DNA of 64,000 nucleotides from Escherichia coli (GCF_013315695.1 NZ_CP054353.1), one strand, 5' to 3'; positions 28,471-57,977 are shown, counted from the stretch's first letter. Notes: generated by a model not told the origin, from the letters alone. Made by a program: numbers and translations.

Positions 28471-30065
28471 TGGCTGACATTCTGCTGCTCGATAATATCG
28501 ATTCTTTTACTTACAACCTGGCAGATCAGTTGCGCAGCAATGGTCATAACGTGGTGATTTACCGCAACCATATTCCGGCGCAGACCTTAATTGAACGCCT
28601 GGCGACGATGAGCAATCCGGTGCTGATGCTCTCTCCTGGCCCCGGTGTGCCGAGCGAAGCCGGTTGTATGCCGGAACTCCTCACCCGCCTGCGCGGCAAG
28701 CTGCCAATTATTGGCATTTGCCTCGGTCATCAGGCGATTGTCGAAGCTTACGGGGGCTATGTCGGTCAGGCGGGCGAAATTCTTCACGGTAAAGCGTCGA
28801 GCATTGAACATGACGGTCAGGCGATGTTTGCCGGATTAACAAACCCGCTGCCAGTGGCGCGTTATCACTCGCTGGTTGGCAGTAATATTCCGGCAGGTTT
28901 AACCATCAACGCCCATTTTAATGGCATGGTGATGGCGGTGCGCCATGATGCGGATCGCGTTTGTGGATTCCAGTTCCATCCGGAATCCATTCTTACTACC
29001 CAGGGCGCTCGCCTGCTGGAACAAACGCTGGCCTGGGCGCAGCAGAAACTAGAGCCAACCAACACGCTGCAACCGATTCTGGAAAAACTGTATCAGGCGC
29101 AGACCCTTAGTCAGCAGGAAAGCCACCAGCTATTTTCAGCGGTGGTGCGTGGCGAACTGAAACCGGAACAACTGGCGGCGGCGCTGGTGAGCATGAAAAT
29201 TCGCGGCGAGCACCCGAATGAAATCGCCGGGGCAGCAACCGCGCTACTGGAAAACGCCGCGCCGTTCCCGCGCCCGGATTATCTGTTTGCCGATATCGTC
29301 GGTACTGGCGGTGACGGCAGCAACAGTATCAATATTTCTACCGCCAGTGCGTTTGTCGCCGCGGCCTGCGGGCTGAAAGTGGCGAAACACGGCAACCGTA
29401 GCGTCTCCAGTAAATCCGGCTCGTCGGATCTGCTGGCGGCGTTCGGTATTAATCTTGATATGAACGCCGATAAATCGCGCCAGGCGCTGGATGAGTTAGG
29501 CGTCTGTTTCCTCTTTGCGCCGAAATATCACACCGGATTCCGCCATGCAATGCCGGTTCGCCAGCAACTGAAAACCCGCACCCTGTTCAATGTTCTGGGG
29601 CCATTAATTAACCCGGCGCATCCTCCGCTGGCGTTAATTGGTGTCTACAGCCCGGAGCTGGTGCTGCCGATTGCCGAAACCTTGCGCGTGCTGGGGTATC
29701 AACGCGCGGCGGTGGTGCACAGCGGCGGGATGGATGAAGTTTCATTACACGCGCCGACAATCGTTGCCGAACTGCATGACGGCGAAATTAAAAGCTATCA
29801 GCTCACCGCAGAAGACTTTGGCCTGACACCCTACCACCAGGAGCAATTGGCAGGCGGAACACCGGAAGAAAACCGTGACATTTTAACACGCTTGTTACAA
29901 GGTAAAGGCGACGCCGCCCATGAAGCAGCCGTCGCGGCGAATGTCGCCATGTTAATGCGCCTGCATGGCCATGAAGATCTGCAAGCCAATGCGCAAACCG
30001 TTCTTGAGGTACTGCGCAGTGGTTCCGCTTACGACAGAGTCACCGCACTGGCGGCACGAGGGTAA
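28470..30065 (+). CDS. trpD: anthranilate synthase component II / anthranilate phosphoribosyltransferase
   Basis: 531-aa bifunctional ORF (GATase plus PRT domain), overlapping trpE stop. Confidence 0.95.
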
Positions 30066-31427
30066 ATGATGCAAACCGTTTTAGCGAAAATCGTCGCAGA
30101 CAAGGCGATTTGGGTAGAAACCCGCAAAGAGCAGCAACCGCTGGCCAGTTTTCAGAATGAGGTTCAGCCGAGCACGCGACATTTTTATGATGCACTTCAG
30201 GGCGCACGCACGGCGTTTATTCTGGAGTGTAAAAAAGCGTCGCCGTCAAAAGGCGTGATCCGTGATGATTTCGATCCGGCACGCATTGCAACCGTCTACA
30301 GAAATTACGCTTCGGCAATTTCGGTGCTGACTGACGAGAAATATTTTCAGGGGAGCTTTGATTTCCTCCCCATTGTCAGCCAAATCGCCCCACAGCCGAT
30401 TTTATGTAAAGACTTTATTATCGACCCTTACCAGATCTATCTGGCGCGCTATTACCAGGCTGATGCCTGCTTATTAATGCTTTCAGTACTGGATGACGAA
30501 CAATATCGCCAGCTTGCCGCCGTCGCCCACAGTCTGGAGATGGGTGTGCTGACCGAAGTCAGTAATGAAGAGGAACTGGAGCGCGCCATTGCATTGGGGG
30601 CAAAGGTCGTTGGCATCAACAACCGCGATCTGCGCGATTTGTCGATTGATCTCAACCGTACCCGCGAGCTTGCACCGAAACTGGGGCACAACGTGACGGT
30701 AATCAGCGAATCCGGCATCAATACTTACGCTCAGGTGCGCGAGTTAAGCCACTTCGCTAACGGTTTTCTGATTGGTTCGGCGTTGATGGCCCATGACGAT
30801 TTGAACGCCGCCGTGCGCCGGGTGTTGCTGGGTGAGAATAAAGTGTGTGGCCTGACGCGTGGGCAAGATGCTAAAGCAGCTTATGACGCGGGCGCGATTT
30901 ACGGTGGGTTGATTTTTGTTGCGACATCACCGCGTTGCGTCAACGTTGAACAGGCGCAGGAAGTGATGGCTGCGGCACCGTTGCAGTATGTTGGCGTGTT
31001 CCGCAATCACGATATTGCCGATGTGGTGGACAAAGCTAAGGTGTTATCGCTGGCGGCAGTGCAACTGCATGGTAAAGAAGATCAGCTGTATATCGACACT
31101 CTGCGTGAGGCTCTGCCAGCACACGTCGCCATCTGGAAGGCTTTAAGTGTCGGTGAAACTCTTCCCGCGCGCGATTTTCAGCACATCGATAAATATGTAT
31201 TCGACAACGGTCAGGGCGGGAGCGGACAACGTTTCGACTGGTCACTATTAAATGGTCAATCGCTTGGCAACGTTCTGCTGGCGGGGGGCTTAGGCGCAGA
31301 TAACTGCGTGGAAGCGGCACAAACCGGCTGCGCCGGACTTGATTTTAATTCTGCTGTAGAGTCGCAACCGGGCATCAAAGACGCACGTCTTTTGGCCTCG
31401 GTTTTCCAGACGCTGCGCGCATATTAA
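30066..31427 (+). CDS. trpC: indole-3-glycerol phosphate synthase / phosphoribosylanthranilate isomerase
   Basis: 453-aa bifunctional ORF. Confidence 0.95.
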
Positions 31428-31438
31428 GGAAAGGAACA

Positions 31439-32632
31439 ATGACAACATTACTTAACCCGTATTTTGGTGAGTTTGGCGGCATGTACGTGCCACAAATCCT
31501 GATGCCTGCTCTGCGCCAGCTGGAAGAAGCTTTTGTCAGTGCGCAAAAAGATCCTGAATTTCAGGCTCAGTTCAACGACCTGCTGAAAAACTATGCCGGG
31601 CGTCCAACCGCGCTGACCAAATGCCAGAACATTACAGCCGGGACGAACACCACGCTGTATCTGAAGCGCGAAGATTTGCTGCACGGCGGCGCGCATAAAA
31701 CTAACCAGGTGCTGGGACAGGCGTTGCTGGCGAAGCGGATGGGTAAAACGGAAATCATCGCCGAAACCGGAGCCGGTCAGCATGGCGTGGCGTCGGCCCT
31801 TGCCAGCGCCCTGCTCGGCCTGAAATGCCGTATTTATATGGGTGCCAAAGACGTTGAACGCCAGTCGCCAAACGTTTTTCGTATGCGCTTAATGGGTGCG
31901 GAAGTGATCCCGGTACATAGCGGTTCCGCGACGCTGAAAGATGCCTGTAACGAGGCGCTGCGCGACTGGTCCGGCAGTTATGAAACCGCGCACTATATGC
32001 TGGGCACCGCAGCTGGCCCACATCCTTATCCGACCATTGTCCGTGAGTTTCAGCGAATGATTGGCGAAGAAACCAAAGCACAGATTCTGGAAAGAGAAGG
32101 TCGCCTGCCGGATGCGGTTATCGCCTGTGTTGGCGGCGGTTCGAATGCCATCGGCATGTTTGCAGATTTCATCAACGAAACCGACGTCGGCCTGATTGGT
32201 GTGGAGCCTGGCGGCCACGGTATCGAAACTGGCGAGCACGGCGCACCGTTAAAACATGGTCGCGTGGGCATCTATTTCGGTATGAAAGCGCCGATGATGC
32301 AAACCGAAGACGGGCAAATTGAAGAGTCTTACTCCATTTCTGCCGGGCTGGATTTCCCGTCCGTCGGCCCGCAACATGCGTATCTCAACAGCACTGGACG
32401 CGCTGATTACGTGTCTATTACCGACGATGAAGCCCTGGAAGCCTTTAAAACGCTTTGCCTGCATGAAGGGATCATCCCGGCGCTGGAATCCTCCCACGCC
32501 CTGGCCCATGCGCTGAAAATGATGCGCGAAAATCCGGAAAAAGAGCAGCTATTGGTGGTTAACCTTTCCGGTCGCGGCGATAAAGACATCTTCACCGTTC
32601 ACGATATTTTGAAAGCACGAGGGGAAATCTGA
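31439..32632 (+). CDS. trpB: tryptophan synthase beta chain
   Basis: 397-aa PLP enzyme (HGGAHKTNQ lysine motif). Confidence 0.95.
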
Positions 32633-33438
32633 TGGAACGCTACGAATCTCTGTTTGCCCGTTTGAAGGAGCGCAAAGAAGGCGCATTCGTTCCTTTCGTC
32701 ACCCTCGGTGATCCGGGCATTGAGCAGTCGCTGAAAATTATCGATGCGCTAATTGAAGCCGGTGCTGACGCGCTGGAGTTAGGCATCCCCTTCTCCGACC
32801 CACTGGCAGATGGCCCGACGATTCAAAACGCCACACTGCGTGCCTTTGCGGCAGGTGTGACCCCGGCGCAGTGCTTTGAGATGCTGGCACTCATTCGCCA
32901 GAAACACCCGACCATTCCCATTGGCCTGCTGATGTATGCCAACCTGGTGTTTAACAAAGGCATTGATGAGTTTTATGCCCAGTGCGAAAAAGTCGGCGTC
33001 GATTCGGTGCTGGTTGCCGATGTGCCCGTGGAAGAGTCCGCGCCCTTCCGCCAGGCCGCGTTGCGTCATAATGTCGCACCTATCTTTATCTGCCCGCCAA
33101 ATGCCGATGACGACCTGCTGCGCCAGATAGCCTCTTACGGTCGTGGTTACACCTATTTATTGTCGCGTGCGGGCGTGACCGGCGCAGAAAACCGCGCCGC
33201 GTTACCCCTCAATCATCTGGTCACGAAGCTGAAAGAATACAATGCTGCGCCTCCATTGCAGGGATTTGGTATTTCCGCCCCGGATCAGGTAAAAGCAGCG
33301 ATTGATGCAGGAGCTGCGGGCGCGATTTCTGGTTCGGCCATCGTTAAAATCATCGAGCAACATATTAATGAGCCAGAGAAAATGCTGGCGGCACTGAAAG
33401 CTTTTGTACAACCGATGAAAGCGGCGACGCGCAGTTAA
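32632..33438 (+). CDS. trpA: tryptophan synthase alpha chain
   Basis: 268-aa ORF overlapping trpB stop. Confidence 0.95.
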
Positions 33439-33442
33439 TCCC

Positions 33443-33470
33443 ACAGCCGCCAGTTCCGCTGGCGGCATTT
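33443..33470 (+). terminator. trp operon terminator
   Basis: cagccgccagttccgctggcggc hairpin followed by T-run. Confidence 0.8.
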
Positions 33471-33818
33471 TTACTTTCTTTAACGAAGCCGGAAAAATCC
33501 TAAATTCATTTATTATTTATCTTTTTACCGTTTCGCTTACCCCTGTCGAACGTCAACTTACGTCTTTTTTCCGCCCAACAGTAATATAATCAAACAAATT
33601 AATCCCGCAACATAACACCAGTAAAGTCAATAATTTTCTCTAAGTCACTTATTCCTCAGGCAATTGTTAATATATCCAGAATGTTCCTCAAAATATATTT
33701 TTCCTCTTTTTTCTCGTTACGCTTAATTTGACTAATTCTCATTTGCGACTAATTTTAATGAGTGTCGACACACAACACTCATATTAATCAAACAATGCAG
33801 CGCAACGGGAGAAATAAC

Positions 33819-33998
33819 ATGGCCGAACATCGTGGTGGTTCAGGAAATTTCGCCGAAGACCGTGAGAAGGCATCCGACGCAGGCCGTAAAGGCGGTCAGC
33901 ATAGCGGCGGTAATTTTAAAAATGATCCGCAACGCGCATCTGAAGCAGGTAAAAAATGCGGTCAACAAAGCGGTGGTAATAAATCAGGAAAATCCTGA
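33819..33998 (+). CDS. yciG: KGG-repeat stress protein YciG
   Basis: 59-aa ORF MAEHRGGSGNFAEDREKASDAGRKGGQHSGGNFKNDPQRASEAGKKCGQQSGGNKSGKS. Confidence 0.85.
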   Translation: MAEHRGGSGNFAEDREKASDAGRKGGQHSGGNFKNDPQRASEAGKKCGQQSGGNKSGKS

Positions 33999-34083
33999 TT
34001 CACCGTTCATTATTAATATCAGCTGATAAAGATAATTGCATCTGCGGGCCGTATGGCTCGCAGTGATTTCACTGGAGAAAAAT

Positions 34084-34584
34084 ATGAATATGAAGACCAT
34101 TGAAGATGTATTTATTCACCTGCTTTCAGACACCTACAGTGCAGAAAAACAATTAACACGTGCACTGGCAAAACTCGCTAGAGCAACATCAAACGAAAAA
34201 TTAAGTCAGGCTTTTCATGCGCACCTCGAGGAAACACATGGACAGATTGAACGTATTGATCAAGTTGTGGAATCAGAATCGAATCTGAAAATTAAGCGCA
34301 TGAAATGTGTGGCAATGGAAGGTCTTATTGAAGAAGCTAATGAGGTCATCGAAAGTACCGAGAAAAACGAAGTGCGTGATGCCGCACTGATTGCCGCAGC
34401 ACAGAAAGTCGAGCATTATGAGATTGCCAGTTACGGGACATTAGCGACGCTGGCTGAACAATTAGGTTACCGTAAAGCAGCTAAGCTTCTGAAAGAAACT
34501 CTTGAAGAAGAAAAGGCCACCGACATCAAACTAACTGATCTGGCCCTTAATAACGTAAATAAGAAAGCCGAAAATAAAGCCTGA
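34084..34584 (+). CDS. yciF: DUF892/ferritin-like protein YciF
   Basis: 166-aa ORF MNMKTIEDVFIHLLSDTYSAEKQLTRALAKLARATS... Confidence 0.9.
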   Translation: MNMKTIEDVFIHLLSDTYSAEKQLTRALAKLARATSNEKLSQAFHAHLEETHGQIERIDQVVESESNLKIKRMKCVAMEGLIEEANEVIESTEKNEVRDAALIAAAQKVEHYEIASYGTLATLAEQLGYRKAAKLLKETLEEEKATDIKLTDLALNNVNKKAENKA

Positions 34585-34629
34585 AATATGAACTTTAACT
34601 TTTAGTCATTTTATAAAGAGGACATTTTC

Positions 34630-34921
34630 ATGAATCGTATTGAACATTATCATGACTGGTTACGTGACGCCCACGCAATGGAAAAGCAAGCCGAATCTAT
34701 GCTTTAATCCATGGCCAGCCGTATAGATAATTATCCTGAACTACGCGCTCGTATTGAACAACATCTTAGTGAAACCAAAAACCGATTGTTCAACTGGAAA
34801 CTATTCTTGATCGTAATGACATTTCACGTTCAGTCATTAAAGATTCCATGAGTAAAATGGCTGCGCTTGGGCAGTCAATCGGTGGTATATTTCCTTCTGA
34901 TGAAATAGTCAAAGGCTCTAT
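34630..34921 (+). pseudogene. yciE: yciE pseudogene: in-frame TAA at codon 26, 1-bp deletion frameshift, 3' end removed by IS1
   Basis: MNRIEHYHDWLRDAHAMEKQAESML* then YciE-like sequence continues in the same frame (SMASRIDNYPELRARIEQHLSETKN), then shifts frame (…SVIKDSMSKMAALGQSIGGIFPSDEIVKGS) until the IS1 end. Confidence 0.8.
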
Positions 34922-34976
34922 GGTGATGCTGCCAACTTACTGATTTAGTGTATGATGGTGTTTTTGAGGTGCTCCA

Positions 34977-35252
34977 GTGGCTTCTGTTTCTATCAGCTGT
35001 CCCTCCTGTTCAGCTACTGACGGGGTGGTGCGTAACGGCAAAAGCACCGCCGGACATCAGCGCTATCTCTGCTCTCACTGCCGTAAAACATGGCAACTGC
35101 AGTTCACTTACACCGCTTCTCAACCCGGTACGCACCAGAAAATCATTGATATGGCCATGAATGGCGTTGGATGCCGGGCAACAGCCCGCATTATGGGCGT
35201 TGGCCTCAACACGATTTTACGTCACTTAAAAAACTCAGGCCGCAGTCGGTAA
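34977..35252 (+). CDS. insA: IS1 InsA
   Basis: Identical translation to copy 1. Confidence 0.95.
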
Positions 35253-35674
35253 CCTCGCGCATACAGCCGGGCAGTGACGTCATCGTCTGCGCGGAAATGG
35301 ACGAACAGTGGGGCTATGTCGGGGCTAAATCGCGCCAGCGCTGGCTGTTTTACGCGTATGACAGGCTCCGGAAGACGGTTGTTGCGCACGTATTCGGTGA
35401 ACGCACTATGGCGACGCTGGGGCGTCTTATGAGCCTGCTGTCACCCTTTGACGTGGTGATATGGATGACGGATGGCTGGCCGCTGTATGAATCCCGCCTG
35501 AAGGGAAAGCTGCACGTAATCAGCAAGCGATATACGCAGCGAATTGAGCGGCATAACCTGAATCTGAGGCAGCACCTGGCACGGCTGGGACGGAAGTCGC
35601 TGTCGTTCTCAAAATCGGTGGAGCTGCATGACAAAGTCATCGGGCATTATCTGAACATAAAACACTATCAATAA
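35171..35674 (+). CDS. insB: IS1 InsB
   Basis: Identical translation to copy 1. Confidence 0.9.
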
Positions 35675-35888
35675 GTTGGAGTCATTACCGTGATAAACAT
35701 CCGGTTTCTTCCACCATCGCACCGGACAGGCGACTATGAGGGGACAACGCCGCGCTCCGTTAACGCGGTAAACCCCGGTGTGTATCGTTTTTGATTATCC
35801 CCGCACACTCGCGCAGAGGAGTCTCCCTGTCGGGCTGCGGTCTCTGTTAATGAGGGAATACAGCGACGATACGGCGCATCAACAAAAC

Positions 35889-41074: not shown

Positions 41075-41151
41075 TGGCGCGTTGTACTGGATTCGAACCA
41101 GTGACCGATTGCTTAGAAGGCAATTGCTCTGTCCGGCTGAGCTAACAACGC
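41075..41151 (-). tRNA. tRNA-Arg (anticodon UCU)
   Basis: Manual fold: acceptor GCGTTGT/ACAACGC, D-arm GCTC..GAGC, anticodon stem ATTGC/GCAAT with loop CTTCTAA, T-arm ACTGG TTCGAAT CCAGT, CCA end. Confidence 0.9.
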
Positions 41152-41164
41152 AGGATACAGATAA

Positions 41165-41241
41165 TGGACCGCCTTCGGGGACCCGAACTCCGCGCAACCA
41201 GCTTCGAAAGCTGGCGCTCTTTCCTGATGAGCTAATGGCGG
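41165..41241 (-). tRNA. tRNA-Arg-like (anticodon UCG), possibly degenerate
   Basis: Perfect anticodon stem CCAGC/GCTGG with loop TTTCGAA, but one mismatch each in acceptor and T stems and T-loop TTCGGGT lacks the conserved A58. Confidence 0.5.
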
Positions 41242-41248
41242 TATGTGA

Positions 41249-41324
41249 TGGTGGCCCTTGCTGGATTTGAACCAGCGACCTGGCGATTATGAGTCGCTCG
41301 CTCTCACCACTGAGCTAAAGGGCC
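41249..41324 (-). tRNA. tRNA-Ile2/Met type (anticodon CAU), ileX/ileZ-like
   Basis: GGCCCTTTAGCTCAGTGGTGAGAGCGAGCGACTCATAATCGCCAGGTCGCTGGTTCAAATCCAGCAAGGGCCACCA; near-identical to remembered E. coli tRNA-Ile2 (k2CAU). Confidence 0.85.
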
Positions 41325-45534: not shown

Positions 45535-45690
45535 TTACTCCTCAGGTTCGTAAGCTGTGAAGACAGCGACCTCCGTCTGGCCGGTTCGGAGTCGTACCTC
45601 GCAGAGGTCTTTCCTCGTTACCAGTGCCGTCACTATGACGGTTAAACAGATGACGATCAGGGCGATTAACATCGCCTTTTGCTGCTTCAT
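45535..45690 (-). CDS. hok: Hok/Gef-family type I toxin (HokD/RelF-like)
   Basis: MKQQKAMLIALIVICLTVIVTALVTRKDLCEVRLRTGQTEVAVFTAYEPEE, essentially the remembered HokD sequence; extended upstream frame (to 45747) corresponds to mok-like leader. Confidence 0.9.
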   Translation of the reverse strand: MKQQKAMLIALIVICLTVIVTALVTRKDLCEVRLRTGQTEVAVFTAYEPEE

Positions 45691-45927
45691 AGCCTGCTTC
45701 CCCTTGCCTTTCGGCACGTAAGAGGCTAACCTACATTTGTGAGACATAGATTGGGCCTCAGATTAATGTTAAGCGTCTTGCAGGACGCGAAATGTTAACT
45801 GGGGCTTTTCTCTATCTGCCTTTCAGTGTTCATGCCTGAGACAGATAGCCTCAAGCACCCGCAGCCATTCTACTTAACTCACGTCACCTCGCCAATATGA
45901 AATCAATCAGAAAGGTGATCCATAAAA

Positions 45928-46614
45928 TCACTCCTTCTCTTCTTTTCCGTAGTGGAGTTGGCCAATTTTGATAAGAGGGCGTCCCTGAGATTTGCGGTGT
46001 AGATTGGTATCGCGCAGAGAATACACACAGCCACAATATTCCTGCTGATAGAATTTTTCGCGCTTGCTGATTTCAATCATACGGGACGAGCCGCCCTGCT
46101 TGCGCCAGTTATAATCCCAGTACACCATACCCGGATAATGCGCAACAGCTCGCCGCCCACACTCGTTAACCTGCTGCATATTTTTCCAGCGTGAAATGCC
46201 CAGTGAACTGCTGATCACACTGAAACCATTTTCAGCAGCGTACAACGCTGTCCGCTCAAAACGCATGTCAAAACACATGGTACAACGGATCCCCCTCTCA
46301 GGCTCCCATTCCATTCCTTTGGCACGTTCAAACCAGTTGTCGGTGTCGTAATCAGCATCGATAAACGGCACGCCGTGTTGTTCAGCAAAGCGAATATTTT
46401 CATCCTTACGAATTAAATACTCTTTCTGAGGATGAATGTTCGGGTTGTAGAAAAAGATGGTGTAGTCGATTCCCGAGGCCTGAAGCGCCTCCATCACTTC
46501 ACCGGAACATGGAGCACAGCAAGAGTGCAGTAGTAGTTTGTTTGCCCCGTTTGGGAGCTCCAATTTAGGCCGTTTGAAATCAGCAATAGTCATAAATATT
46601 TTTATTGGGGTCAT
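45928..46614 (-). CDS. QueH-like (DUF208) putative epoxyqueuosine reductase
   Basis: 228-aa ORF with [11 protein letters not shown] motif plus additional Cys clusters (CTMCFD, YCGC) recalled as QueH/DUF208 signature; not verified by search. Confidence 0.5.
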
Positions 46615-46767
46615 GAAAATAGCACAGAGTGTAGCATCAGAGCAGGTCTATCGGGAATATATGTCTAAATCTGGTAATATCTGGTTTTGACGCAAAGCGG
46701 ACAACCACGCTGGCTCTACCCTGCGCCATGAAAATGTCAATTCACATCTGAACTAATGCTCTTTAAT

Positions 46768-47208
46768 CTAGTAACGTCTAAAATACCTAACATTTCCTTG
46801 ATAAAATGCCAGTACACGCTGCATAGCTTCGCTCTTCCGGCACTCGCGACAGATTATATTCAGGCGCCTGTCGTAGCGGCGTATTTCGCCGTCTGGTAAC
46901 GACCAGATAAGGTCCGGATCAACCACTGCAGGTTTCTTCACCTTTGCCCTTGAGAGTTTTTTGCGAGCATTTTGCCAGTCCTTACGCGCCTGTTCAGACG
47001 GGAATAACCCGTAACCAGAGTTGTATACATCGCCACTGGCAACCAGCTCTCTGGCGAGAACACTCATCAGATATCTTGTCGCACCTGTCCTGGCTTCCAG
47101 TTGCCGCAACGTCTCGCGACCGCTCAGACGTACAAGTTCAACAACCTGCCCTTTAATTTTTTCCCGCTCTTCTTGTGTAAATACTTTTGCCATAAGCGCC
47201 TCCGGCAA
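46768..47208 (-). CDS. hypothetical phage protein
   Basis: 146-aa ORF in replication/nin region. Confidence 0.5.
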   Translation of the reverse strand: MPEALMAKVFTQEEREKIKGQVVELVRLSGRETLRQLEARTGATRYLMSVLARELVASGDVYNSGYGLFPSEQARKDWQNARKKLSRAKVKKPAVVDPDLIWSLPDGEIRRYDRRLNIICRECRKSEAMQRVLAFYQGNVRYFRRY

Positions 47209-47979
47209 TCACTTTTCCGATACAACACGGCGGGAAGAATCAGTAATCTGTCGAACAATATCCCGGTGCTTGTTCAGCTCCCGCAGCGCGGCGCAGACTC
47301 GCTCCCACTTCTGAACATCACTTTTCGCCCTGCGCAGCGCCAGGTTTGCCCTGCGAAGGGACGGAAAAATCAGCTCATCTGCTTGCGTTTCGGTAAACGA
47401 TGGCAACGGCTGCACAATGTCCGCCACAGTTTCTGTTTTAATTTCTTCCTGTGTTGCGGCTTCCCGGACTGGTAACGCAGCACCTGCTGGCTGAGGAAAG
47501 GCCTTACCATCACTTTCCGTTACCAGCGCGGCTTTCGGCTCTGCTGGTAAATTATCGCCCGGCATGCAGTAACGAAATTTACCGTTCTGATTAACGCGTG
47601 CCAGCCGCCCCGTTGCGGTTACCACCGCCAGCGTGGAAGCAACCTTGCGAGTACTGACACCGAACTTACCCGCCAGTTCCTCACACGTTTTAGCCCCATC
47701 CTGACCGATAAACTCAATCATCATGTCTGCGGTAACTTTTTGTTCGACCTCCCCGGTCAGCATATCCTGTGCTTCAGATTTTACTGGCCGCTCTTCGGTT
47801 ACCCGGGATTCACCTTCGCCAGCCAGAAACCAGGTGTGACCAGTTTTATCAACGACGCCTTTTCTTTTGAGTTCCCACAGCTCGTTGACAGCCTCTTCAC
47901 GACTGATTCCAAGGCGAGCTGCCACCACATGTGAAGAGGCTTTTTTCAGTGCTTTCAGTGCGTCAGATACGGTTTCCAT
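47209..47979 (-). CDS. hypothetical phage protein with putative winged-helix segment
   Basis: 256-aa ORF immediately downstream of DnaC-like gene. Confidence 0.5.
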   Translation of the reverse strand: METVSDALKALKKASSHVVAARLGISREEAVNELWELKRKGVVDKTGHTWFLAGEGESRVTEERPVKSEAQDMLTGEVEQKVTADMMIEFIGQDGAKTCEELAGKFGVSTRKVASTLAVVTATGRLARVNQNGKFRYCMPGDNLPAEPKAALVTESDGKAFPQPAGAALPVREAATQEEIKTETVADIVQPLPSFTETQADELIFPSLRRANLALRRAKSDVQKWERVCAALRELNKHRDIVRQITDSSRRVVSEK

Positions 47980-55593: not shown

Positions 55594-55842
55594 ATGGCAA
55601 GACTTATTCTGCTCACTGAGTGGGCAAAAGAGGAATTCAGTGAACCGGTCCCTACTCCGAGTACGTTAAGTAAATACGCTAAAGCCGGAATGATATTTCC
55701 TCTCCCCAAAAAAGTTGGAAGACGCTGGCGAGTGGATCCGCAAGCTCGCTTTGTCGGAATGGTAAACAAGCCGGAGGTGATCGCCACAGATCACCCTGCT
55801 TTGAAGAGGATACTGGAAGATGGCGCGCCCGCGAAAATATAA
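55594..55842 (+). CDS. xis: excisionase-like protein
   Basis: 82-aa ORF immediately upstream of and overlapping the integrase gene. Confidence 0.6.
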   Translation: MARLILLTEWAKEEFSEPVPTPSTLSKYAKAGMIFPLPKKVGRRWRVDPQARFVGMVNKPEVIATDHPALKRILEDGAPAKI

Positions 55843-56950
55843 AACCGATGTTCCGGGATTATCTCCGTATTTTGACAAAAGAAATAACAAAGTTTACTGG
55901 CGTTACAGGCATCCCATAACAGGCAAAAATCACGGTCTCGGCAGTATTGACCAGAAACTGGCAGAAACTATTGCAGCAGAAGCGAACAGCCGTCTTGCCC
56001 GGCAGCAAATGGAACAAATGCTCAGTCTGCAGGAGAAAATTATTAGTGATACCGGCGGTTCATCAACCGTTACCATTTTTCTGAATAATTACAGAAAAAT
56101 TCAACAGGAAAGATATGAAAACGGCGAGATCAAACTCAACACGCTGAAACAGAAAGCAGCTCCTCTCAGGGTATTTGATGAACGTTTTGGCACCAGACCG
56201 TTAGATGCCATAACCGTAAAAGATGTGGTATCAGTACTGGAAGAGTACAAGGCCAGAGGACATAACAGAATGGGACAAATTTTCAGGAAAGTACTGATCG
56301 ATGTTTTCCGGGAAGCTCAGCAAACGGGCGATGTCCCGCCAGGCTTTAACCCTGCAGAATCGGCAAAAAAACCGCAGGTGCGGATATCAAGACAGCGACT
56401 GACTTTTGATGAGTGGATGATGATTTATAACGCAGCGGAAAAGGATGGTTACTTTTTACAGCGCGGTATGCTGCTGGCACTGATGACAGGCCAGCGCCTT
56501 TCAGATATTTGCAAAATGCAATTTTCGGATATCCGGGATGGTTATCTTCATGTCGAACAGCAAAAAACAGGAACCCGGATTGCCATCCCTCTGGCTCTGC
56601 GTTGCGATAAATTAAATCTCACCCTGGATGATGTGGTGTCATCCTGCCGCGATTGCGTTCTTAGTCCGTGGCTATTGCACCACCATCACGCGAAAGGGAC
56701 AGCTAAGCGCGGCGGGATGGTTAAGCCAGCAACATTAACCGTTGCATTTAAAAAAGCCCGGGATTCTGTGGATTACAACTGGCGTGCTAATGGCACCCCT
56801 CCCTCTTTCCATGAGCAGAGATCTTTATCAGAGCGATTGTTCAGAGAGCAGGGGGTTGATACCAAAATTTTGCTAGGCCATTCGAATCAAAAAATGACCG
56901 ATATTTACAACGACGCACGCGGTAAGGAATGGAAAAAACTGGTCATTTGA
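55820..56950 (+). CDS. int: tyrosine recombinase (lambda-type integrase)
   Basis: 376-aa ORF with catalytic-region motifs (…LMTGQRLSDICKMQFSDI…, …HHHAKGTAKRGG…, …LLGHSNQKMTDIY…); 3' end 35 bp from ompW stop. Confidence 0.85.
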   Translation: MARPRKYKTDVPGLSPYFDKRNNKVYWRYRHPITGKNHGLGSIDQKLAETIAAEANSRLARQQMEQMLSLQEKIISDTGGSSTVTIFLNNYRKIQQERYENGEIKLNTLKQKAAPLRVFDERFGTRPLDAITVKDVVSVLEEYKARGHNRMGQIFRKVLIDVFREAQQTGDVPPGFNPAESAKKPQVRISRQRLTFDEWMMIYNAAEKDGYFLQRGMLLALMTGQRLSDICKMQFSDIRDGYLHVEQQKTGTRIAIPLALRCDKLNLTLDDVVSSCRDCVLSPWLLHHHHAKGTAKRGGMVKPATLTVAFKKARDSVDYNWRANGTPPSFHEQRSLSERLFREQGVDTKILLGHSNQKMTDIYNDARGKEWKKLVI

Positions 56951-56984: not shown

Positions 56985-57623
56985 TTAAAAACGATATCCT
57001 GCGGAGAACATAAACACCCACGGATCCAGTCGTACCGAGTCTTTTACGGTAGTAACACCAGATTTGTACTTAGCCGTGGTATCGATATCCATGTACCACA
57101 CTGACATGTTAACCAACCAGTCACGGTTAATCAGATAATCAACCCCCACCTGCCCGGCAGCTCCCCAGGAATCTTTCAGACTGAGATCGGAAAGCCCCGC
57201 CTCTTTGCCATGATCGTTAAATCCATTATCAAAGAAGGTGGTGTAGTTAATACCTGCCCCAACGTAAGGACGGAATTTGCTGCTGGCATCACCAAAATAC
57301 CACTGCGCCATCAGTGTTGGCGGCAGATGATGAACGGTTGCAATATCGCCGGTCGCCCGGGTGCCGATTTTATGGCGGAACGGCGTCGCAGCCAGTAATT
57401 CCACACCAATGTTGTCGGTCGCCATATAAGTAAACGTCAGGCCCAGTTGCGTGTTATTGGTCACGCTGAATCCACCCAGACTTCCTAACGTACCACCAGC
57501 ACCTTCTGTTGGACGTACGGTTGCAGACCCTGCACGCATAAAAAATTCGCCTGCTTCATGCGCATAGGCACTGCCAGAGAGAAGAGTTGTTACTGCCAAA
57601 GCCGCCACTGTTAACTTTTTCAT
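56985..57623 (-). CDS. ompW: outer membrane protein W
   Basis: Start at MKKLTVAALAVTTLLSGSAYA… within ORF 56985..57701; C-terminus …SAGYRF. Confidence 0.9.
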   Translation of the reverse strand: MKKLTVAALAVTTLLSGSAYAHEAGEFFMRAGSATVRPTEGAGGTLGSLGGFSVTNNTQLGLTFTYMATDNIGVELLAATPFRHKIGTRATGDIATVHHLPPTLMAQWYFGDASSKFRPYVGAGINYTTFFDNGFNDHGKEAGLSDLSLKDSWGAAGQVGVDYLINRDWLVNMSVWYMDIDTTAKYKSGVTTVKDSVRLDPWVFMFSAGYRF

Positions 57624-57977
57624 ATCCGCTCCGTCGTTATGGTTATAAAAACGTGACGAATATACCCACATTGGAGTAACAAATGATCCTACACAGATCA
57701 CATTATATATGATAATTCACCCTTTATTGATCTGGATTAATTTAGAAGTTGCACTGTGAATCCTGGTTAATGTGATTTAAATCAATTCCTATATATTTCA
57801 CTACGCAAACATTAACTCGCTCGCCACTTGCTGCGGTTTGCCCATAGCTTAGACCCGCAATTACCTCCGCTTTACAAAGATATGCTTTTCCATACAAGAC
57901 CTGATGCTGCCACCCGAGGCTTAACCAGGGTACAATTGCCCGCTAATTAACACCTGCATAAAACTCAAGGAGAGTGC

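Follow-up and report, generated by a model that had tools for sequence, protein, structure and literature searches.

A gene for a putative cobalamin-independent epoxyqueuosine reductase, QueH, in the variable cargo slot of Escherichia coli lambdoid prophages

A lambdoid prophage remnant of Escherichia coli (GCF_013315695.1, NZ_CP054353.1) carries an intact queH gene whose product, judging by its sequence and predicted fold, is likely to be a working cobalamin-independent iron-sulfur epoxyqueuosine reductase, which would convert epoxyqueuosine (oQ) to queuosine (Q) and free the completion of this tRNA modification from the supply of B12. We infer its enzymatic activity, iron-sulfur binding, independence of B12 in vivo and benefit from the evidence laid out below. 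All positions refer to the window, the whole stretch of 64,000 nucleotides that was analyzed, and are counted from its first letter. The family assignment as such is not new: in roughly a thousand complete genomes RefSeq gives this very protein the name QueH, and the QueH family, its reaction and its crystal structure are already known. What appears to be undescribed so far is that the gene is phage-borne, common in E. coli and under selection there; our full-text literature searches found no paper on a phage or prophage QueH.

The first-pass annotation of this locus had described a 228-aa product with an HSCCAPCS motif and further Cys clusters. In the six-frame ORF list, the minus-strand ORF 45928..46614 encodes 228 aa as the longest ORF and contains HSCCAPCS (residues 30-37), a central CxxC (CTMC) and a C-terminal CGC, so that the coordinates and motifs stand; the length has to be corrected, the coding sequence most likely starting at Met8 of this ORF and encoding 221 aa (Table 1). 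The first seven codons differ between prophage alleles, reading MTPIKIF here and MNLINTF in alleles L087, L088 and L002, and allele L085 has a stop codon inside them, while conservation among the alleles sets in at Met8 and covers everything downstream. The chromosomal QueH of Erwinia starts at the Met homologous to the prophage Met8, and the RefSeq/PGAP annotation of the prophage protein (WP_000150294.1) likewise has 221 aa. From the variable leader codons, the stop in L085 and these two downstream starts, we therefore place the beginning of the coding sequence at Met8.

Table 1. Positions in the window of queH and of the other features considered in this study.
Feature	Position	Strand	Remarks
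IS1, 768 bp	34922-35689		joins truncated yciE directly to the prophage lysis genes
SASA-family (NanS-p-like) carbohydrate esterase, 617 aa	38247-40100	-	late region, before holin and lysozyme
Three prophage tRNA genes	41075-41324	-	anticodons CAU, UCG, UCU
DNA methyltransferase, 349 aa	41374-42423	-	late region, after Q
hok/sok type I toxin-antitoxin locus, complete	45535..45860	-	Rfam sok, Hok/Mok ORF, PGAP hokD
queH CDS, epoxyqueuosine reductase QueH, PF02677	45928..46593	-	221 aa plus stop; most likely start; PGAP CDS WP_000150294.1
Seven in-frame codons, MTPIKIF	46594..46614	-	probably 5' leader rather than coding, from allele variation
Non-coding spacer between the DUF977 gene and queH, 174 nt	46594..46767	-	alignment of seven alleles
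TGCTACACT, extended -10-like 9-mer	46628..46636	-	34 nt before the queH start codon
DUF977 family gene, last of the replication module	46768..47208	-	constant upstream neighbor of queH
DUF1627 protein	47209-47979	-	weak PADLOC CARF3/Csa3-like matches, E about 1e-3, short stretches
int	55820-56950		of the defective prophage
ompW	56985-57701		beside the prophage

The assignment to the QueH family has as firm a support as computation on sequence and model can give. Pfam detects a single domain, QueH (PF02677, the former DUF208; IPR003828), which is matched over model positions 1-174 of 175 (E=1.2e-65), and no domain besides it. A sequence search of the PDB matches nothing but Thermotoga maritima QueH and mutants of it (E values around 1e-21; 7.8e-22 for 7lc5). 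At E<=0.001 no NCBIfam family matches the protein, which says nothing against QueH membership; the name that PGAP assigns despite this presumably comes from other evidence. Among the PHROGs it falls into phrog_3217 (E=1.9e-138), which is listed as "unknown function" and whose profile omits the CCAPC N-terminus.

To place individual residues, we used an alignment of 40 diverse QueH sequences of 33-86% identity, in which the prophage protein keeps all 14 invariant columns: C25, C26, N52, Y59, R62, E99, R103, C104, C107, K137, Q184, C187, G188 and C189 (221-aa numbering). The near-invariant P28 and C29 are likewise present. The six invariant cysteines (C25, C26, C104, C107, C187 and C189) align with cysteines of T. 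maritima QueH, which in a 2021 structure paper are reported to bind a [4Fe-4S] cluster and an adjacent iron. Cys29 occupies the position of T. maritima Asp13, the residue changed in the depositors' D13N mutant (PDB 9dco), so that the motif reads CCAPC versus CCAPD. CCAPC is found in all 120 close homologues and in 92 of the 118 representatives at 50% identity that have the CC motif, with CCAPD in three of these 118. By sequence, Cys29 is therefore typical of the QueH family, yet the solved T. maritima active site is not reproduced exactly.

The AlphaFold2 model of the prophage protein, built from the 40-sequence alignment, has a mean pLDDT of 95.3 and a pTM of 0.91. Its top five PDB matches in Foldseek are all T. 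maritima QueH, with target-normalised TM scores of 0.90-0.92 and rmsd values of 1.2-2.0 A; the overlay on 7lc5 gives a TM of 0.92 and an rmsd of 1.2 A, and 7lc7 and the QueH-queuosine complex 9deu overlay it with a target-normalised TM of 0.92. The next matches are TtuA and LarE, adenine-nucleotide alpha-hydrolase-type sulfurtransferases, at a TM of about 0.5 by query length and about 0.37 by target. The identity proposed earlier from the cysteine motifs is thus borne out by the full-length match to the DUF208/PF02677 HMM, by the alignment to a characterised QueH with its cysteines in register, by PDB matches to QueH only, by the same predicted fold and by the retention of every invariant residue. 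The model also contains a basic C-terminal extension of ~25 residues (about 197-221; window 45931-46005), modelled confidently to about residue 210, which is absent in T. maritima QueH and common to other gammaproteobacterial QueH. This extension might contact tRNA.

Positions 35690-58987 of the window are 99.7% identical to the lambdoid prophage beside ompW in E. coli AR_0013, and the only other segment of the window matching AR_0013 is 30032-34921. All head and tail genes of the AR_0013 prophage are absent here (~30 kb comprising terminase, head, tail and tail-fibre genes), and what is left is a defective remnant of ~21 kb, from 35690 to about 56980, cut by IS1 and with queH intact. Along the minus (early-right) strand, the order begins with the cro-like gene, YdaT, an O-like gene, a DnaC-like P, DUF1627 and DUF977, which are followed by queH, hok/sok, a 90-aa ORF, DUF968, RusA, Q, the DNA methyltransferase and three tRNAs, and then by a NanS-p-type esterase, holin, lysozyme and Rz. 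The location in the nin region upstream of the prophage tRNA genes that was originally given to queH is broadly right, since the gene lies between the replication genes and hok/DUF968/rusA/Q, and the tRNAs follow 4.6 kb further on the same strand. The first of these tRNAs is called tRNA-Met (CAT) by ARAGORN and tRNA-Ile of the lysidine type by RefSeq, and the second and third are Arg-UCG and Arg-UCU. We reject a functional link between queH and these genes, as none of their anticodons is that of a queuosine (GUN) tRNA. Apart from the missing toxin, the late region looks like that of Stx-type phages.

The surroundings of queH are constant on one side and variable on the other. The DUF977 gene adjoins queH in 62 of the 63 IMG/VR loci with enough flank. 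On the downstream side, the immediate neighbor here is hok/sok, in which sok is matched by Rfam at 45685-45860 (120.5 bits, E=1.7e-28) and the Hok/Mok ORF spans 45535-45747; other cargo takes its place in other strains. The commonest queH allele lies in a conserved ~4-kb block, DUF977-queH-sok/hok-orf90-DUF968, among the same 63 loci. The slot between DUF977 and hok/DUF968 holds queH and an NgoMIV-type restriction-modification pair in O157:H7 Z1768, and queH and Kiwa (KwaA/KwaB) in strain 7/2, while an alpha/beta hydrolase is found in place of queH in O157:H7 MB41-1 and an FRG-domain gene in LF82. The slot is therefore a recombination hot spot of Rac/Qin/ompW-type lambdoid prophages, and queH is one among several cargos that alternate in it. 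The loci of this slot are L084, L089, L100 and L101 in our set.

We surveyed 5426 complete E. coli genomes and detected queH in 994 of them (18%), with at least 80% of the gene covered in 984 of the 994. Nearly all copies are chromosomal (1013 of 1016 places), and the RefSeq label is "epoxyqueuosine reductase QueH". Carriers include ST131 EC958, an O104:H4 strain from Germany, APEC O18 and an O157:H7 strain. That E. coli normally uses QueG, as had been assumed for this locus from the start, is confirmed by the presence of queG in 5425 of the 5426 genomes; queH and queG therefore always coexist. Of the phage isolates in GenBank, only Escherichia phage HannyBb (deposited as a complete genome of 45.3 kb) has a close copy, with 95% identity at the protein level and the annotation "hypothetical protein". 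In the 24 further phage records with a match, identity is 78% at most; this value is reached by two 330-380-kb "Acinetobacter phage MD-2021a" records, and Staphylococcus, Listeria and unannotated "Bacteriophage sp." records are 32-52% identical. A profile scan of the 2.9 million contigs of IMG/VR returned 186 relatives, at least 162 of them from this E. coli prophage lineage, and on these counts we reject a broad spread of QueH in viruses. Phage-borne QueH is rare and essentially confined to one lineage.

The closest proteins outside E. coli, at 80-86% identity, are chromosomal QueH of Erwinia, Providencia, Proteus, Photorhabdus, Gibbsiella and others, those of Erwinia and Providencia being 84-86% identical to the prophage protein; at the nucleotide level, identity with the chromosomal relatives is about 76%. 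We examined the chromosomal neighborhoods in three genera. In Erwinia the order is purL-queH-glrK and in Providencia the gene lies beside tmcA and purC, both housekeeping settings, and in Photorhabdus it is chromosomal with no phage genes nearby. The prophage alleles are 91-98% identical in nucleotides and all occupy the same prophage position. This common position, together with the upstream spacer that they share, points to a single capture, after which the alleles diverged on phages. A lambdoid phage lineage would have taken queH from an enterobacterial chromosome, and the gene would now be alternative cargo in a variable slot. Between prophage alleles, dN/dS is 0.054-0.085 at dS values of 0.10-0.44, and one allele has nine synonymous and no nonsynonymous changes; one truncated queH pseudogene was also seen. 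Read from these substitutions, the low ratios mean strong purifying selection on queH while phage-borne.

How the gene is expressed can be approached through its upstream spacer. In the seven-allele alignment, the queH-proximal ~95 nt of the spacer travel with queH across different prophage backgrounds, and the most divergent allele has only about 40 nt of it in common with the others. The extended -10-like TGCTACACT within the spacer is also found 31 nt before the chromosomal queH start of Erwinia (L096) and is altered in the prophage alleles L089 (TGCCACACT) and L085 (TGCTACACA). It may be a weak candidate for an own promoter of queH, and we offer it as a lead only. A consensus scan revealed no promoter or terminator on the queH strand next to the gene and did not pick up TGCTACACT; the only terminator-like site of the region is at 45466-45449. 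An upstream riboswitch was considered and rejected, since an Rfam search of the queH region (E<=1) gave no preQ1 or cobalamin riboswitch, returning sok, a sub-threshold isrK and noise only, and since the fold of the queH leader is not unusual (z-score -0.8). Since neither a terminator nor a consensus promoter sets queH apart from the replication genes, co-transcription with the early-right operon after induction is the default expectation. Between early-operon expression after induction and low lysogenic expression driven by a weak own promoter, we lean somewhat toward the former. A foreign base composition of the gene is rejected: its GC of 0.48 and GC3 of 0.53 are within the range of its neighbors (GC 0.48-0.54, GC3 0.48-0.62).

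In the queuosine pathway, QueA makes oQ on tRNA, and QueG or QueH reduces oQ to Q (PMC5372724, PMC9508795). QueH is a non-orthologous replacement for QueG (PMC5372724), and while QueG is cobamide-dependent, QueH is a cobamide-independent alternative (PMC6461909). The prophage QueH would act on position 34 of the host's Asp, Asn, His and Tyr tRNAs, turning the oQ there into Q. E. coli has no de novo B12 synthesis, and Frey et al. are said to have observed in 1988 that it accumulates oQ without B12. Under B12-poor conditions the GUN-tRNA pool of the host would stall at oQ, since QueG needs B12. One last-step enzyme that needs only reducing equivalents could then convert the existing oQ pool without any other pathway gene or precursor, and Q status would become independent of the B12 supply. 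That a single enzyme suffices on an existing oQ pool would explain why the phage carries the last step only. If queH is transcribed with the early-right operon upon induction, it would mature tRNA before late-gene translation; in a lysogen, a possible weak own promoter may give low-level expression. Whenever B12 is available, queH is dispensable, the host always having QueG, and we know of no established physiological difference between oQ and Q. A codon-usage sign of a translational need on the phage side was sought and rejected, as the prophage genes have an unremarkable and uninformative 52% NAU at Q-decoded codons.

Several other readings of the locus have to be weighed against a functional epoxyqueuosine reductase. 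Translation could start at the internal Met41 (46492-46494) of the 228-aa ORF, in which case the product would be devoid of CCAPC and would not be a reductase. The phrog_3217 profile and several metagenomic gene calls begin exactly at this residue, and its ATG is preceded by the Shine-Dalgarno-like GGTGAAGTG, none such being found before Met8. Codons 8-40, however, encode a conserved protein sequence in every allele and in each of the 120 close homologues, CCAPC included, and their substitutions between the nearest allele pairs are synonymous; C25 and C26, which a Met41 product would miss, are invariant across the QueH family. We consider a start at Met41 very improbable, and from the sequence comparison the short calls are best read as gene-caller artefacts. 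By dropping CCAPC they may explain the "unknown function" listing in phage databases.

The QueH fold could also have been repurposed in the conflict between phage and host, either for a substrate other than oQ in tRNA, be it a different epoxide or a 7-deazaguanine base of DNA, or for a tRNA change that evades or provides an anticodon-directed defence. The slot does hold defence and conflict cargo in related prophages (Kiwa KwaA/KwaB, NgoMIV-type restriction-modification, hok/sok, FRG-domain), and phages use 7-deazaguanine chemistry on their own DNA (PMC6884629). An identity of 84-86% to housekeeping QueH and the presence of all invariant residues nevertheless leave little room for a new specificity, and a 2019 survey of viral 7-deazaguanine genes found no QueA, QueG or QueH in the viruses that it analyzed (PMC6884629). 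No DpdA/Tgt, QueC, QueD or QueE-like gene is annotated in the AR_0013 sister prophage, on which ground a DNA-modification role was rejected. A defence-system component was rejected as well, PADLOC having no match for QueH or for three of the four neighbors tested; the fourth, DUF1627, is matched weakly (E about 1e-3), and its CARF/Csa3 matches probably reflect a common winged-helix motif and are not significant. Repurposing in conflict is thus very unlikely in our judgement. A passenger without selected function, gained by illegitimate recombination and kept by linkage to a successful prophage block, is very unlikely. It would fit with a host QueG in essentially every genome, with the location of the commonest allele in a conserved ~4-kb block with the self-stabilising hok/sok, with the truncated copy and with the state of the prophage here, a decaying remnant; against this, a dN/dS of 0.05-0.09 between alleles at the same position means selection while phage-borne, coverage of the gene reaches 80% or more in 984 of 994 copies, and the loss of about 30 kb of this prophage to IS1 has left queH intact.

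With a selected epoxyqueuosine reductase as the preferred reading, the biochemical inference is safe and unsurprising, and the physiological question is whether, and to whose gain, the prophage alters host tRNA modification under B12 limitation. Queuosine influences how the codons for Asp, Asn, His and Tyr are decoded, and E. coli is broadly affected when it is lost (PMC9508795). It is possible, if rather doubtful, that prophage QueH is a lysogenic-conversion factor acting on tRNA modification, one through which roughly every fifth sequenced E. coli, the O104:H4 outbreak lineage, ST131 EC958 and APEC O18 among them, would have a Q status independent of B12. If so, carriers should decode NAU/NAC in a measurably different way than QueG-only strains wherever B12 is scarce, as in urine, in blood or in aerobic environments, with consequences for fitness, virulence or phage yield, and no phage-borne enzyme of the tRNA-specific part of the queuosine pathway would have been described before. 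With a mobile B12-independent bypass in 18% of complete genomes, the tRNA modification of strains short of B12 would vary with a prophage gene, a difference that studies in K-12 would miss. The locus also shows that phages can carry the tRNA-specific end of the pathway. If QueH merely duplicates QueG without a phenotype, it is an ordinary accessory gene.

Among known systems, T. maritima QueH (7lc5, 7lc7, 9deu) has the same predicted fold, the CC..P, CxxC and CGC cysteines and the other invariant residues. It is only 30-33% identical to the prophage protein, however, and has Asp13 where the latter has Cys, the majority form of the family. The prophage protein is also longer by ~18 N-terminal and ~25 basic C-terminal residues, as are other gammaproteobacterial QueH, and its gene is carried by a prophage whereas that of T. 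maritima is chromosomal. The chromosomal QueH of Enterobacterales have the same length and start as the prophage protein, and Erwinia also has TGCTACACT upstream; their genes lie in housekeeping neighborhoods, whereas the prophage gene lies in a lambdoid cargo slot of a host that already has QueG.

The locus resembles lambdoid morons and accessory cargo in its location in a slot of variable content between conserved modules of syntenic prophages. Unlike morons, queH has no clear promoter or terminator of its own, lies on the early-right strand and has a GC content like that of its neighbors. Other queuosine/archaeosine pathway genes are also known to be phage-borne, namely the 7-deazaguanine sets (DpdA, FolE, QueC, QueD, QueE; PMC6884629). 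These sets comprise early steps and a DNA transglycosylase and act on DNA, in contrast to the prophage described here, which has only the last, tRNA-specific step and no transglycosylase. The QueG of E. coli, present in the same cells, performs the same reaction on the same tRNA substrates as QueH (PMC5372724), but it belongs to an unrelated protein family and depends on cobalamin, while QueH is described as cobamide-independent (PMC6461909).
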